Assembly: GCA_023250515.1 (NCBI GenBank)
Contig: JAHFAO010000003.1
Span: forward strand, 1-57,353
Direction of reading: 5' to 3'
Origin: Deltaproteobacteria bacterium
GTDB taxonomy: Bacteria; Desulfobacterota; Binatia; UBA9968
Length of the DNA: 57,353 nucleotides
The notes beneath the pieces were generated by a model. It did not search any database, was not told where the DNA came from, and worked only from the letters and a program-made list of their open reading frames with translations. Made by a program: the position numbers and the translations under genes. Of the stretch, positions 1,447-54,268 are shown in pieces; positions within the stretch are counted from its first letter, which is position 1; each line of letters starts with the position of its first letter.

Positions 1447-1500
1447 AGTAGTCAGAATTCAGAATTATGGCTTCTGGATTCTATCTTCTGGATTCTGGTT
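1447..1500. repeat. Palindromic heptamer array, family B (CAGAATT / TTCTGGA)
   Basis: agtagtcagaattcagaatt ... ttctggattctatcttctggattctgg; overlaps the stop of the upstream dehydrogenase. Confidence 0.65.
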
Positions 1501-2374
1501 TTTGCTGTCCGGAGATCAAGGAATAGACATGATAGGCAATGCCGGTCGCTTCGTAACCATCGAGACCGCTGGCTTGAGCGATTGAAAAGAGCTGATAGGC
1601 CAGGGCGCTGAATGGAACCGGGATCTCCATCTCTTTGGCCATTTCCAACCCGAAGCCCACATCTTTGGGCATCCAGGATTTGCGGGGCTTAAACTGACGG
1701 CTAACCAGGGTCTGGCAGATGCGCTCCACTGCCTCCGAGTGGTTCTGTGAATTGCGCAGTACGTTGTGAAAAGTCTCTTCCGAAACCCCACCCCTCTTAA
1801 GCCAATTGAATATCTCCGCTATGCCCATATGTTGAATGGCGCCCAGCATGGCTATAGCGTTCTTAACCAGCTTGGCGTTGCCCAACCCTCCCACATGGAG
1901 GATCTTCTTTCCCATGGCTTGAAAGACCGGCAGGTGCTGATCGAAGAGCTCCTTCGGACCGGACACCCAGAGCGAAAGAGTACCTGCGGCCGCATGCTCC
2001 TCTACCCCACCAGCCGAAGCATCCAGGATCTTCCACCCTTTTTTCTCCATCTCATGGCTGACTCCTAAAATCGTCTTCTTATCGATGCTGCTGCAATCGA
2101 TCCAGAGCCTCGCCCCGGTGGCCGACTCCTGCAAACCACCTTTGCCCAATCCAACCTCTTTTACTGCCTCATTGTAAGGGAGCATGGAGAGTACCAACTC
2201 CGAAGCCTCGGCAACGGCCCTGGGAGATTCCTTAAACTGTGCCCCTTGGCTCTCCAAGTTGCGCGTGACCTCTCGCCTGAGATCGTTGACCACCAAGCTA
2301 TACCCGGCCTTGATGAGATTGGCAGCCATCCCACCACCCATTCCCCCGGTACCGATAAAACCCAATGTCTTCAT
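1481..2374 (-). CDS. NAD(P)-dependent beta-hydroxyacid dehydrogenase (3-hydroxyisobutyrate dehydrogenase-like)
   Basis: GFIGTGGMGGGMAANL Rossmann motif; DASAGG; catalytic KLVKN; KD motif. Confidence 0.88.
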   Translation of the reverse strand: MKTLGFIGTGGMGGGMAANLIKAGYSLVVNDLRREVTRNLESQGAQFKESPRAVAEASELVLSMLPYNEAVKEVGLGKGGLQESATGARLWIDCSSIDKKTILGVSHEMEKKGWKILDASAGGVEEHAAAGTLSLWVSGPKELFDQHLPVFQAMGKKILHVGGLGNAKLVKNAIAMLGAIQHMGIAEIFNWLKRGGVSEETFHNVLRNSQNHSEAVERICQTLVSRQFKPRKSWMPKDVGFGLEMAKEMEIPVPFSALAYQLFSIAQASGLDGYEATGIAYHVYSLISGQQKPESRR

Positions 2375-2408
2375 ATTTCCTCCATGTCAGAAATTAAAAA
2401 GCCTGTTG

Positions 2409-3443
2409 TTAAACCCCGTAACCCAGTTCTCTGCGCACAATCTTGGCCCCCTCCACCATGGACTTTAGCTTTGGCAAGGCGATCCAGCGGGGCGTCGGAT
2501 TGAAGCCGCAATCGGGATTGATCCAGAGCTTTTCCGCCGGCACGTACTTGAGCGCAGTCCGGATCCTCTCGGCGATATCCTCAGGAGTCTCGATATAGAA
2601 GGACTTCTGGTCGACCAGACCGGCGCCGAGCTCCTTCTTGGCTCCCACCTCTTTCCACAACTCGATCTCCGCCATCTCCCGGTTGGCAAACTCAAGAACG
2701 AACTGGTCCGTGTTGGCTTCGAGAACGCCGGGAAAGAGCTTGCGGTATGTCCTCTTCACCAACGGCCGGCCGCGGTGATTCCCGAAGCAAACATGCATCG
2801 CCAGTTTGGCCTTGACCCCGTCCACCGTCGCGTTGAAGATCTCCGCCAATTCCTTTCCGTCCCGGTGGATCTCGCTAAAGGCCGGCTCATCCACCTGGAT
2901 AAAATCCGCCCCGATAGCCACCAGCGCCTTAAGCTCCTTGTTGACGATGGCTACAAAGTCCCAGGCAAGCTCTTTCTGGTCCCGGTAGCCTCCCTTGATC
3001 AATGTACCCGAGGCGAAGGTGGTCGGGCCTGTGCAGGTAACCTTCGTCGGTTTCATCGTGTGTTCCTTTAGGTACTTGAACTCCTCGACGATCCCCAGGC
3101 CCTCAGGCGCGCTGATCCTCCCGCTCACCTCATAGACTTCGCGCGTGTGATACCCCGGATCTCCTATACTCTTTTCCGAAGGCAGCATCTGGATTCCCTG
3201 GATCCTGCGCAAATAGGTTCGAAAGAAAGCGCCGAAACGGCGCATCTCGCCGTCCGAGATGACGTCCACGCCAGCACGCTCCTGATCCAGGATGGCGACG
3301 TCCGTCGCTGTATCCAGTGCCTCGGCGACATCCCTGCAACCCATTCTTCCCGCCTCCGCCTCCTGGCGCACGAGATACCACCACCCCATCTTTGCGTGAC
3401 TTCCCACAACCGATGTGGGAAGAATAGGAAGAGATACGTTCAT
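2409..3443 (-). CDS. Short cobalamin-independent methionine synthase-like Zn enzyme (MetE C-terminal domain only)
   Basis: TSVVGS, SDGEMRR, IQVDEP, HVC and NPDCG Zn ligands. ATG at 3443 follows an AAGGAGGTG RBS, so the ORF-track start is too long. Confidence 0.85.
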   Translation of the reverse strand: MNVSLPILPTSVVGSHAKMGWWYLVRQEAEAGRMGCRDVAEALDTATDVAILDQERAGVDVISDGEMRRFGAFFRTYLRRIQGIQMLPSEKSIGDPGYHTREVYEVSGRISAPEGLGIVEEFKYLKEHTMKPTKVTCTGPTTFASGTLIKGGYRDQKELAWDFVAIVNKELKALVAIGADFIQVDEPAFSEIHRDGKELAEIFNATVDGVKAKLAMHVCFGNHRGRPLVKRTYRKLFPGVLEANTDQFVLEFANREMAEIELWKEVGAKKELGAGLVDQKSFYIETPEDIAERIRTALKYVPAEKLWINPDCGFNPTPRWIALPKLKSMVEGAKIVRRELGYGV

Positions 3444-3469
3444 GAAACACCTCCTTAGCTTTCTTTTCC

Positions 3470-4654
3470 CTATCCCCACACCTGTCGCGCTGTCTCCATC
3501 ATCCGGTCTAGCTTCTGCCACTGCTCATCCTCGCTCAAAACCTTGTTCGAAAGGCCTCCGAAGCCGCATTGGGGGCTTAGTGCAAGCTGTTCGATGGGCA
3601 GGTAACGAGTCGCCTCATCTATGCGGCGCCTGAGTCCATCGACCGTCTCAAGATCGGCGCTTTTCGTCGTGATCAACCCTAGCACGACAAGCTTTCCCTT
3701 GGGGACAAAGCGAAGCGGGTCGAAGCTCCCCGCCCGCTCACTATCATACTCGAGGAGCAAGCGGTGATGGTTGAGGCCATTGAACAGACGCCCGGCGATC
3801 GCCTCATAGTGACCCTCCCGATGCCATTGGGCGACAAGCTTCCCGGTCTTCGGATCGATAGTGCGTGCGTTGCCACGGCAGACGTGGATCCCAAATGTGA
3901 CTCCAGGAAACCCTTCAATAATGGCATTATCCGCCTTGATGGAGCGCGCCAAATTTTCATCGGGATCTTCACCGCGGGACCGCATCCTTTCCAGCGAGAT
4001 CGGATCCACGTAGGCGGTGTATCCAGGGGCATCGATCTGGATGTAGCGACAGCCGGCATCAACCAGTTCCCTCACCATGCGGCGCTCGATGGAGACGACA
4101 TCGTCTACGAAGTCATCCAGACCTTTATAGACGGGTTGGGATTGCTCCCAAGCGAACCGCTGCGAGATTCGATCCGGACTTATGAGGGTCACTTTGACCG
4201 GTCGCTTAGCGACGCTTTGAGAGAACCGGTATTCTTCAAGCGGTATATTGCGGACCAAGCGAAGCCGATCGGTGACTGGCCGACGGGTAACAATGGCCGG
4301 CCCGGCTGCATTGAAGTCCTGTTCCGCGCGCTCAAGTGGCGTTTTATTTATTTCCTGTTGATCGTAGTATCGATATGCGTTTTGCGGCACGGCAAAACCT
4401 GCCACTGAGGCCGAGAAGCTCTCTTGGAAGTTGTGGCGCCGGAATTCGCCGTCGGTAAGCACGGGAAGATTATGCGCCTCCTGTTTTGCGATCACGTCAC
4501 GAATGGCCTCATCCTGAGCCTGGCGCAACTCTTCATCCGTCGCCTCCCCTCGATCGTGCCTTACGAAAACCTCTCTCAACTTTGCAGGGCGCACCAGACT
4601 TCCGATTTGGTCAACCCGAAGGAGCCCCAGAGGGTTTGGTGATTGTGTAGAGAT
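3470..4654 (-). CDS. Second short MetE-like (methionine synthase II family) protein; probable ATC start
   Basis: RVDQIGSLVRP, TDGEFRR, IQIDAP, HVCRGN, LEYD, LSPQCGF. The conserved N-terminal motif begins upstream of the called GTG at 4594; GGAGG lies 5 nt before an in-frame ATC at 4654. Confidence 0.85.
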   Translation of the reverse strand: MSTQSPNPLGLLRVDQIGSLVRPAKLREVFVRHDRGEATDEELRQAQDEAIRDVIAKQEAHNLPVLTDGEFRRHNFQESFSASVAGFAVPQNAYRYYDQQEINKTPLERAEQDFNAAGPAIVTRRPVTDRLRLVRNIPLEEYRFSQSVAKRPVKVTLISPDRISQRFAWEQSQPVYKGLDDFVDDVVSIERRMVRELVDAGCRYIQIDAPGYTAYVDPISLERMRSRGEDPDENLARSIKADNAIIEGFPGVTFGIHVCRGNARTIDPKTGKLVAQWHREGHYEAIAGRLFNGLNHHRLLLEYDSERAGSFDPLRFVPKGKLVVLGLITTKSADLETVDGLRRRIDEATRYLPIEQLALSPQCGFGGLSNKVLSEDEQWQKLDRMMETARQVWG

Positions 4655-4687
4655 ATGATCCTCCGGTTTAAAAAATCTGCCTTGATG

Positions 4688-53623: not shown

Positions 53624-53638
53624 TGGCACGGGCATTGC
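53624..53638 (+). promoter_or_regulatory. sigma54 (-24/-12) promoter
   Basis: TGGCAC-GGGCA-TTGC, matching the consensus, ending 39 nt upstream of the ORF at 53678. Confidence 0.75.
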
Positions 53639-53677
53639 CTCCAAATAGATGCAAATCCAACCTGATTCGGAAACGCT

Positions 53678-54067
53678 ATGAAGTGGCTTTATCTATTTCT
53701 GAAAAGCCGGTCTATCAGGGCCCTTTTGCCCACCCTGCTCTTGATCTCGCTATGGCCATGGGCATCTAACGGCCAGGACTTTAAAAAATGGGAGGCCAAG
53801 ACAAGAGAGTATAAACAGTGGCTGGATTTGCATGGGTCAGAGGGCTCCCGTCTTTGGTTAAGGATTGATAGCAGCCGCCGGCCTCATAAACTTTACGTGG
53901 GAGAGGCTTTTCACAACGCAAATTATAAGGAAAAAGAACATTTCATCGAGATCTTTTCCAACTATCTCGCCGGCCACCCGGAGAAGTTCACACTTATCGA
54001 TATCTTTGATGCAAAGACGGGAAAACCCGTCGGCGAATTTGGTTGGGGCGGGTTCAAGCTCTATTAA
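53678..54067 (+). CDS. Hypothetical exported protein
   Basis: Basic then hydrophobic N-terminus ending ASNG-Q; plausible composition; no family recognised. Confidence 0.7.
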   Translation: MKWLYLFLKSRSIRALLPTLLLISLWPWASNGQDFKKWEAKTREYKQWLDLHGSEGSRLWLRIDSSRRPHKLYVGEAFHNANYKEKEHFIEIFSNYLAGHPEKFTLIDIFDAKTGKPVGEFGWGGFKLY

Positions 54068-54122
54068 TCTCTTTTTAGAATTGGTGGAGAAGGGGCATAA
54101 GGGATTGTGTCTTGGGAAAAAC

Positions 54123-54198
54123 TGGTGGGCCGCCGGGGACTCGAACCCCGGGCCCGCTGATTAAGAGTCAGCTGCTCTACCAACTGAGCTAGCGGCCC
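54123..54198 (-). tRNA. tRNA-Lys(CTT)
   Basis: Anticodon arm gctga-ctcttaa-tcagc; CCA encoded. Confidence 0.95.
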
Positions 54199-54208
54199 AT
54201 ATCTGCTC

Positions 54209-54268
54209 CGAGAATCGAGGACGGAGGATCGAGAATCGCGATTCTATCCTCTATCTTCTATCCTCAAT
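54209..54268. repeat. Palindromic heptamer array, family E (CGAGRAT / TATCCTC)
   Basis: cgagaat cgaggac ggaggat cgagaat cgcg attc tatcctc tatcttc tatcctc, between tRNA-His and tRNA-Lys. Confidence 0.82.

Follow-up and report, generated by a model that had tools for sequence, protein, structure and literature searches.

Inverted tandem-repeat hairpins inserted between core-operon genes of a Binatia-like bacterium

Introduction

Short tandemly repeated repetitive (STRR) heptanucleotides of cyanobacteria were reportedly described by Mazel et al. in 1990, and bacterial heptamer repeats, known since that year, are to our knowledge still unexplained. Here we describe 16 elements, each made of a short tandem array followed closely by the same array in inverted orientation, that occupy spacers between genes in a 57,353-nucleotide stretch of DNA from an uncultured bacterium (contig JAHFAO010000003.1, positions 1 to 57,353; hereafter the window, meaning the whole stretch that was analysed). 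The comparison with STRR had been proposed in a first-pass annotation made from the sequence and is a fair one, in that tandem 7-nt or, in the window, 7-9-nt units occur dispersed in several families per genome, in intergenic positions and often inside operons. The window arrays differ from STRR in that they are adjacent inverted pairs that fold, in that their units of 7-9 nt combine a constant core with free positions, and in their host, which is Binatia-like and not a heterocyst-forming cyanobacterium.

Several other described systems resemble these elements in part. Correia RNA hairpins are processed by RNase III, and in E. coli RNase III sites are located inside ribosomal protein (r-protein) operons. 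Like the window elements, the REP/REPIN sequences with their RAYT proteins and the Correia/NEMIS miniature inverted-repeat transposable elements of Neisseria are short, dispersed intergenic palindromes found between co-transcribed genes, with a proposed mobiliser that is a gene flanked by inverted copies (for REPIN, the available sections of PMC3116915). They have no tandem sub-structure, keep a fixed family sequence, have a known or proposed transposase and, in the case of Correia, are accompanied by TA duplications.

In Xanthomonas, 70-75 convergent pairs of GGGAATC heptamer arrays per genome are reported in the available sections of Rehm et al. 2015 (PMC4692102). There, as in the window, a tandem heptamer array is followed at short distance by the same array on the other strand, the positions are mostly intergenic, and the type is constant across species that differ in array length. 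The Xanthomonas arrays are built from one G-rich, quadruplex-forming unit, whereas the window has at least six units that are not G-tracts, and in the sections of Rehm et al. 2015 (PMC4692102) on which we rely no tie to cargo genes or r-protein operons is reported. In the window units TCGTnnn, TCAGCnn, CCAGAAn and CGTTCAAnn there are no GGG tracts, GGG being present only in family F, so these are not units of the quadruplex-type G-tract kind.

According to the available text of Warrier et al. 2016 (PMC4990558), the 23S intervening sequence of Coxiella has a 28-bp terminal stem, in which RNase III cuts, and tandem GACAGAT heptamers whose copy number differs from strain to strain. Intervening sequences of this kind with an S23p open reading frame (ORF), as in Coxiella and Leptospira, share with the present elements the inverted-repeat terminal stem and the tandem heptamers, and PF05635, the family of the 23S intervening-sequence protein, is the cargo of cassettes in relatives of the window host. 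They differ in that the window elements are ORF-less and lie in mRNA junctions and tRNA spacers and not in 23S rRNA, and in that RNase III cleavage has been shown for Coxiella, the comparison here being made from sequence. The marine Beggiatoaceae carry TAACTGA heptamers in r-protein operons, directly 5' of starts (fusA, L3, S4), and the downstream genes are mostly without a canonical ribosome-binding site, as reported in the accessible part of MacGregor 2015 (PMC4679880). The Beggiatoaceae repeats differ in being direct repeats (169 sets, one of them indirect) of a single unit that do not form hairpins (same part of PMC4679880). In the literature that was searched, with subscription journals mostly outside its coverage, no publication was found that links heptamer arrays to these cassettes or describes arrays around GxxExxY genes.

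The feature described here is real and is a rich variant of this known but unexplained repeat class. The interpretation that we favour, with somewhat better than even confidence, is that all 16 elements belong, as ORF-less members, to a widespread class of small, STRR-like heptamer-repeat insertions related to intervening-sequence cassettes, a composite reading that includes an RNA step. In appearance the hairpins are closer to mobile elements that lack a gene than to dedicated regulators.

Results and Discussion

Architecture of the elements

The 16 elements, of 53-96 nt each, were identified with Tandem Repeats Finder (TRF), an inverted-repeat finder and a sense-strand reading of every spacer. 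They follow a common plan in which 2-5 degenerate units of 7-9 nt are followed, after a gap of 0-40 nt, by an equal number of reverse-complement units, each unit having a constant core of 4-5 nt and 2-4 free positions. Paired arrays were reported by TRF at 12 sites (periods 7-9, 2-5 copies per arm), and the five longest arm pairs given by the inverted-repeat finder were I1 (37713-37788), I2 (8671-8728), I3 (31229-31306), I4 (19429-19495) and I5 (18051-18123). Among the 37 spacers of at least 35 nt in the window 16 were occupied, and an overlap with ORF ends was seen only for C1 (20 of 54 nt) and B1 (19 of 82 nt). The features flanking all 16 elements are co-directional and on the minus strand, which is uninformative with regard to orientation preference because nearly the whole window is on the minus strand.

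Statistical support was obtained with a detector that looks for chains of exact 4-mer cores spaced by one or two units and followed, at most 60 nt further on, by the reverse-complement chain. With 3+3 copies, 6 elements were detected, whereas 100 dinucleotide shuffles gave 0.08 on average and 1 at most; with 3+2 copies, 15 elements were detected compared to a mean of 3.19 (maximum 8). At its loosest setting the detector makes false calls in about 2% of spacers, and it over-calls G+C-rich coding DNA (as in the loci L012 and L034). Exact 4-mer chains without a skipped unit gave 1 element at 3+3 copies. Earlier detectors were dropped, namely a TRF-pairing script that gave only 7 elements, a noisy k-mer dot-plot and a strict lag-p autocorrelation that missed degenerate units.

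A register slip was found for 13 of the 16 elements, which can pair in two to seven registers with offsets of 7-9 nt or multiples thereof (mean in shuffles 0.02-1.7). B2 and E have five registers each, at 7 nt, and D has four, at 9 nt, and in the same test of the 16 elements unit-spaced registers were absent in A3, A4 and C3. Minimum-energy folds contained 11-30 pairs in total, with at least 18 pairs in 15/16 elements, and mismatches interrupt the pairing; a long terminal stem with tandem heptamers is thus present. The fold z-scores relative to shuffles were modest (-1.2 to -6.1), several hairpins being weak at about -1.2 to -2 and several folds lying only 1-2.7 SD below shuffles. None of the 54 terminator-like sites listed for the window was formed by element arms, and the antisense site at 8655-8674 touches the edge of A1. 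On the 3' side of four elements only TTTTA(A/T)T is found and no design with a G+C stem and a U-tract.

Family A (TCGTnnn(n) followed by (n)nnnACGA) has six copies: A1 (8666..8732) in the rpoA|rplQ spacer, A2 (11829..11897), built from 8-nt units, in the map|infA spacer, A3 (20512..20586) in the rpsS|rplV spacer, A4 (21818..21893) in the rplW|rplB spacer, A5 (31220..31312), which takes up the rpoB|rpoC spacer, and A6 (46090..46148) in the gap between tRNA-Val and tRNA-Asp. The TCAGCnn units of family B form two copies, B1 (18044..18125) in the rplN|rplX spacer, where the 3' arm extends to the annotated TTG start of rplX, and B2 (19426..19503) in the rpsC|rplP spacer; a lopsided relative with about 4 units against 1-2, B3 (40225..40301), is found in the tRNA-Gly/tRNA-Thr gap. 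Family C (CCAGAAn, then its complement) has four copies. C1 (1447..1500) lies between a 3-hydroxyacid-dehydrogenase-like gene (1481-2374), whose last codons it overlaps as the upstream gene, and an RNA 2'-phosphotransferase gene (897-1436). C2 (9770..9858) has a loop of about 30 nt in the 98-nt rpsD|rpoA spacer, C3 (23580..23645) lies in the rpsJ|rplC spacer, and the arms of C4 (37150..37245), in the rplK|rplA spacer, are separated by a loop of about 40 nt. The single element of family D (37711..37789), in the nusG|rplK spacer, has four copies of the 9-mer CGTTCAAnn followed by four of its complement, E (54205..54272) consists of CGAGAAT/GGATAGA-type arrays in the tRNA-His/tRNA-Lys gap, and F (45950..46002), with 2+2 units of GCTGGGAn and a folding energy of -34.7 kcal/mol, lies between tRNA-Asp and a 149-aa ORF (45496-45945). 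All 16 are on the minus strand, and B3 and F are the weakest members of the set.

These results agree with the first-pass annotation in that at least 16 elements with a tandem unit and an inverted tandem unit exist in the window, that unrelated units are used, that the pairing register can slip, that the elements are intergenic with overlaps of gene ends at most, and that none has a typical GC stem with a U-tail. Its division into families (six of A, four of B, three of C and one each of D, E and F) kept the total of 16, and the split had to be re-assigned to six of A, two of B with one lopsided relative, four of C, and D, E and F. The statement that there are six unrelated unit families was right in that unrelated units recur and overstated how independent the members of one family are, since these have long strings in common. 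The placement at core-operon junctions reflects the content of the window, since 5 of the 16 elements are located outside the r-protein and rpo operons.

Three further structures were noted in the window. The fusA|rpsG spacer (26065-26136) contains a classical G+C stem, GGAGGCGG...CCGCCTCC, followed by seven T, which was missed by the terminator scan and shows 76% identity in loci L002 and L004; it is probably an attenuator or terminator in the str operon, of another kind than the heptamer hairpins. A one-armed GGCAnTA-like run without an inverted partner covers the end of rpsK together with the spacer between rpsK and rpsM (10960-11027), and three direct copies of a 16-18-nt unit, TGACCCTAACTTCCAC, also without an inverted partner and representing a different kind of repeat, are found at 6195-6246 inside a 419-nt non-coding stretch.

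Insertion into gene junctions

To compare the junctions, 39 window proteins were located in 21 related loci (all loci are denoted here by L and a number) and every junction was measured. The junctions that bear elements in the window were mostly 0-40 nt long in these loci or carried other unit families. In the window the rplW|rplB junction measures 91 nt. L111, which together with one other locus is closest to the window, has 2 nt there, and the range in 13 further relatives is 9-43 nt. Four relatives have other families at this position, namely CGTTCAAnn (the family D unit) in L090 and another one in each of L091, L094 and L104. Similarly, the rplN|rplX junction of 66 nt is replaced by 3 nt or by overlapping genes in 14/15 relatives, rpoB|rpoC is 94 nt in the window as compared to 5-61 nt in relatives, and the rpoA|rplQ spacer of 69 nt corresponds to 3 nt in L002 and L004. 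At rpsC|rplP, TCAGCnn hairpins are present in the window, L101 and L104, a GAGT-type hairpin in L002 and L004, and one-armed GTTCAAG arrays in L111 and L094. At map|infA, full arrays are found in the window and L111, and L091 has a 17-nt remnant with 1+1 unit. These comparisons identify the elements as lineage-specific insertions at junctions where the genes of relatives lie close together or overlap. The junction comparison that had been suggested in the first-pass annotation yielded mostly short junctions or other unit families, and no ORF-bearing alleles, in the 21 loci.

Elements of this design are not confined to this lineage. Among 1038 spacers of at least 35 nt from r-protein loci, 75 were flagged compared to about 20 expected from shuffled spacers, in 45 of 160 r-protein loci from many phyla, with clear examples in Chloroflexota, Acidobacteriota, Nitrospirota and deltaproteobacterial metagenome-assembled genomes (MAGs).

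Relatedness of copies and change by whole units

Pairs of family A elements have exact strings of up to 19 nt in common, covering 2-3 units with equal order of the unit variants, as compared to a mean of 7.6 and a maximum of 12 nt in a dinucleotide-shuffle null. In addition, two GCAAAAT-family elements located in different genomes and at different junctions, fusA|rpsJ in L111 (8041 region) and rplW|rplB in L104 (2899 region), have an identical 27-nt 3' end (...TTTTCATTTTGCAATGCGCCGAAGGCG) that takes in non-repeat sequence, with a Shine-Dalgarno-like GAGGT just downstream. Given these multi-unit strings common to copies of one family, descent from common copies and not a separate origin at each site is therefore indicated.

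Changes in the arms were also observed between closely related sequences. For A2, a 686-nt public contig with 11 mismatches is short by exactly one 8-nt unit, and the 3' arm of a cassette found in L010 and L022 (see below) consists of a single unit in one of these loci and of 3 units in the other. This shows that arms change by whole units between near-identical strains. The public Logan contigs are short, and apart from the A2 unit loss the differences seen in them were too weakly supported and were not counted as presence/absence alleles. The differences set aside were a joint (X5) skipping 19418-19511, which is the whole rpsC|rplP spacer, with unknown letters in between; a joint (X2) with 38 letters in place of 9751-9878 and only 25 nt on one side; indels in C3 from a single contig with a depth of 3.3; and joints between different family A or family B elements, which are probably other copies in those metagenomes.

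An origin by local growth, in which replication slippage and template switching at small palindromes build each hairpin at its own site and nothing moves, would account for the one-unit indels, for the 17-nt remnant in L091 and for the one-armed arrays in L111 and L094, and among the long simple repeats of bacteria heptamers are the most frequent (Mrazek 2007, cited in the accessible part of PMC4679880). Such growth does not explain why different sites have strings of 16-19 nt in common in which the unit variants follow one order, why two genomes have the identical 27-nt tail at different junctions, or why families are met again in other genomes and on either side of cargo genes, and we consider it very unlikely.

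Small-gene cassettes between arms of the same families

In genomes related to the window host, arms of the same families enclose small genes. Nine copies of PF05635 were found in three of the four nearest Binatia genomes, and 8/9 were bracketed by inverted tandem arrays, the ninth being cut by a contig end. The cassette arms correspond to window families: CGTTCAAnn (D) in L081, where this unit flanks the PF05635 gene, family A in L083, and arms that resemble E in L084 and C in L087. In a sample of the phylum, PF05635 was present in 63/101 genomes with up to 15 matches per genome, and arms of the A, B, C and D types were among those flanking it. For 29 usable loci from 29 genomes the flanks were compared with 53 control spans shifted by 1 kb. 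At least 7 arm units on the two flanks were found for 22/29 loci compared to 2/53 controls, and at least 5 arm units for 29/29 compared to 14/53.

The GxxExxY genes (TIGR04256), present in 34/101 genomes of the phylum sample, have shorter arms than PF05635, with at least 5 units in 23/27 cases compared to 11/50 controls and at least 7 units in 6/27 compared to 1/50. In the four nearest genomes a single match to the GxxExxY family PF13366 was obtained. At the rpsK|rpsD junction of two deltaproteobacterial MAGs, which belong to another phylum (L010 16714-17218 and L022 8946-9500) a GxxExxY gene (TIGR04256, E = 3e-36) lies between inverted GATTACACA arrays, intact in L010 and with a frameshifted, shortened ORF in L022. 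A direct connection between cassettes and hairpins was found in genome G002, where a PF05635 cassette arm (L082) and an ORF-less hairpin in an r-protein operon (L004 16346-16410) have a 22-nt string of three units in common. A common-substring cut-off of at least 11 nt between window elements and cassette flanks did not discriminate (18/160 control segments), and only matches at unit level and the 22-nt match were used. In a crude duplex calculation the sense strand was the more stable one in 8/10 cassettes, which is not significant.

Taken together, the same arm families are shown to enclose promoter-less small genes in related genomes, both PF05635/TIGR02436 (Avd-like) and GxxExxY (PD-(D/E)XK-fold). 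The statement in the first-pass annotation that four-helix-bundle and GxxExxY genes are often flanked by such arrays is thereby borne out for the relatives, and the cassette idea as a whole is partly borne out. What did not find support was the proposal that the window elements are empty footprints of departed cassettes. This explanation, in which each hairpin is the remainder left at its site after a PF05635 or GxxExxY cassette departed or its ORF was lost, would fit the common families of hairpin and cassette arms, the decaying rpsK|rpsD cassette of L022 with its frameshift-shortened ORF, and the Shine-Dalgarno-like GGAGG/GGGGG in the loops of C2 and C4, as is found in front of cassette ORFs. 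On the other hand, an ORF enclosed by arms is absent from all junctions compared in the 21 related loci, a tblastn search of the 160 r-protein loci with 5 PF05635 proteins gave no match, and the loops are mostly 0-30 nt without a recognisable ORF remnant, which makes a footprint origin quite unlikely.

The cassette proteins of the PF05635 type are TIGR02436 four-helix-bundle proteins with a weak match to Avd, and their nearest solved relative is XCC0516 of Xanthomonas (2gsc). PF05635 has been likened to the diversity-generating retroelement (DGR) protein Avd in the accessible part of PMC10053308. This raises the question whether the 3-5 units per arm could be single-stranded RNA or DNA sites for an oligomeric protein, for example a pentameric Avd-like four-helix bundle, with the hairpin being incidental. 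The constant core of 4-5 nt with 2-4 free positions per unit, the five chains with which 2gsc and 2rld, the nearest solved relatives, were deposited, and the resemblance of PF05635 to Avd (PMC10053308, same part) would be compatible with binding arrays. Given that the cores are wholly different between families of one genome, that GxxExxY cassettes are armed too and that no PF05635 gene was seen in the window (none among 10 small ORFs, and a best E of 0.18 in tblastn with 5 proteins from relatives), we regard this as highly improbable.

Translation starts downstream of elements

The predicted Shine-Dalgarno pairing within 22 nt 5' of start codons, calculated with a generic anti-Shine-Dalgarno sequence, had a median of -2.2 kcal/mol for genes that follow an element (n = 12) compared to -6.25 kcal/mol for the others (n = 24; Mann-Whitney test, p = 4e-4). 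Across the clade the difference had p = 6e-4 with the window included and p = 0.12 without it (n = 15 versus 92). The weak Shine-Dalgarno pairing after elements suggests that initiation there depends on the element or on upstream translation.

The starts of rplP and rplK are preceded by an identical 12-nt string, TTAGTTTTAATT (19403-19417 and 37688-37702), located directly after B2 and D, and TTTTAAT/TTTTATT-like strings are also found after C1 and C3. The 12-nt string may belong to the element, or its A/U-rich sequence may take the place of a Shine-Dalgarno sequence. The possibility that the hairpin brings an upstream Shine-Dalgarno sequence next to the start was considered by eye, and the spacing fits B2 and not A4.

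Mobile insertion or host-serving RNA element

A number of observations weigh against the interpretation of the hairpins as mobile insertions. Between L002 and L004 the orthologous element at rpsC|rplP is identical at 67/87 positions (77%) compared to 46.5% at third codon positions, which would suit a host function, and of its 24 consensus pairs 19 are unchanged, 3 have one-sided changes, 2 are compensatory and 0 are broken. In the L010/L022 cassette the initial 100 nt or so of the 5' arm show about one mismatch, compared to an identity of 82.8% at third codon positions. Furthermore, folding of the sense strand was more stable than that of the antisense strand in 9/16 elements, with a mean difference of -0.9 kcal/mol that is not significant. 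No ORF between the arms was found at the 16 junctions in the window or in the 21 related loci, the largest unexplained spacers being 158 and 219 nt, and among the public contigs that cover the 16 sites none represents a precisely empty allele from a near-identical strain. Inverted arms are present, and target-site duplications were not readable, the filled and the short junctions being too diverged; such duplications and the exact insertion boundaries are unreadable because no metagenome contig exceeds 87% RplB identity. The tie between arms and cargo comes from the genomes of relatives, and RNase III cutting and the chemistry of transposition are steps that we infer.

The evidence on constraint versus junk is mixed. 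The conservation of the L002/L004 element is at the level of the promoter and terminator spacers in those loci, and the rpsH|rplF element has been swapped between L010 and L022 for a different, longer one despite their third-position identity of 82.8%. These data bear on the explanation that the hairpins are host-serving RNA punctuation, i.e. selected processing sites, 3' stability barriers or translational-coupling devices that tune the output of core genes, with tandem units being the easiest slippage route to a stem. Such a function would explain why the L002/L004 element exceeds the synonymous-site level, why the L010/L022 5' arm is near-invariant and why Shine-Dalgarno pairing is weak downstream of the window elements, and heptamers in r-protein operons without ribosome-binding sites, as reported in the accessible part of MacGregor 2015 (PMC4679880), would find a place in it. 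It is difficult to reconcile with the closest relatives, which at these junctions are without elements or have unrelated families, with the replacement at rpsH|rplF, with the lack of a folding advantage of the sense strand and with the selfish-looking genes inside the same arms, and the Shine-Dalgarno effect is non-significant without the window. We therefore judge host-serving punctuation to be rather unlikely.

Possible route of spread and wider meaning

If the elements are ORF-less mobile insertions, they would be transcribed as part of the operon RNA and form a long imperfect stem in which mismatches separate helices of 5-7 bp. By analogy, such a stem would be the kind of substrate that RNase III cuts in 23S intervening sequences, and an insertion would then split or punctuate the polycistronic RNA with neither neighbouring gene being destroyed. 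Only hairpin-forming inserts may persist in essential operons because the polycistronic RNA is punctuated without gene destruction. Candidate routes of spreading are homing by a cargo nuclease, a reverse-transcriptase route via the Avd-like protein and hairpin-targeted recombination, and the ORF-less copies may spread on their own. A benefit to the host, if there is any, would be secondary.

A bolder version, which we put forward tentatively and with low confidence, is that heptamer-armed hairpins and PF05635/GxxExxY cassettes form one cross-phylum mobile class that is recognised by structure like the integron attC. Promoter-less cassettes would park in highly transcribed operons or rRNA, be expressed from the host transcript and be excised at the RNA level, and the ORF-less hairpins would be miniature derivatives that in this window replace the ribosome-binding regions of a dozen essential genes.

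The window has an unusual heptamer density, with 16/37 spacers occupied, in the operons that are best conserved and most strongly expressed, in a phylum about which little is known, and the data from a single clade join three things, namely gain and loss at junctions, homology of copies, and arms common to two small-gene families. If the link is general, STRR, the Xanthomonas and Beggiatoa heptamers, rRNA intervening sequences and stand-alone four-helix-bundle genes would be one phenomenon. For annotators it is relevant that long spacers or starts without a Shine-Dalgarno sequence in core operons can stem from such inserts.

Genomic setting of the window

The genes of the window have the fused tuf-secE-nusG-rplKAJL-rpoBC-str-S10-spc-alpha order and are nearly all on the minus strand. 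NCBIfam names were obtained for tuf, nusG, rplK, rplA, rpoB, rpoC, rplW, rplB, rpsS, rplV, rpsC, rplP, rplN, rplX, map, rpsM, rpoA and rplQ. The G+C content is about 0.52 and 8.5% of the window is non-coding. At the gathering score, Rfam gave 12 tRNA matches for the whole window and nothing else, corresponding to 12 tRNA genes, and there are no rRNA genes in the window; thus the elements are not located at a 23S rRNA helix tip and lie in gaps flanked by protein and tRNA genes. RplE had its best relatives in Candidatus Binatia MAGs (78-80%), and for RplB the best metagenome contigs had 87% identity with none closer in the metagenome scan. Since the best relatives of both proteins are Candidatus Binatia MAGs and the gene order is also non-cyanobacterial, the host is not cyanobacterial and is, judged by its sequence, a Binatia-like bacterium.

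Some minor features of the window genes were also recorded. L17 scored below the cut-off of the 'sunset domain variant' model. S19 has a C-terminal extension of about 38 residues (20590-20706) that derives partly from an 18-nt tandem repeat (TRF, 20600-20636). Between metabolic genes and rplQ there is an island of small ORFs, in which overlapping DUF2442 (94 aa) and DUF4160 (86 aa) genes on the plus strand (6519-7056) may represent a toxin-antitoxin-like pair.

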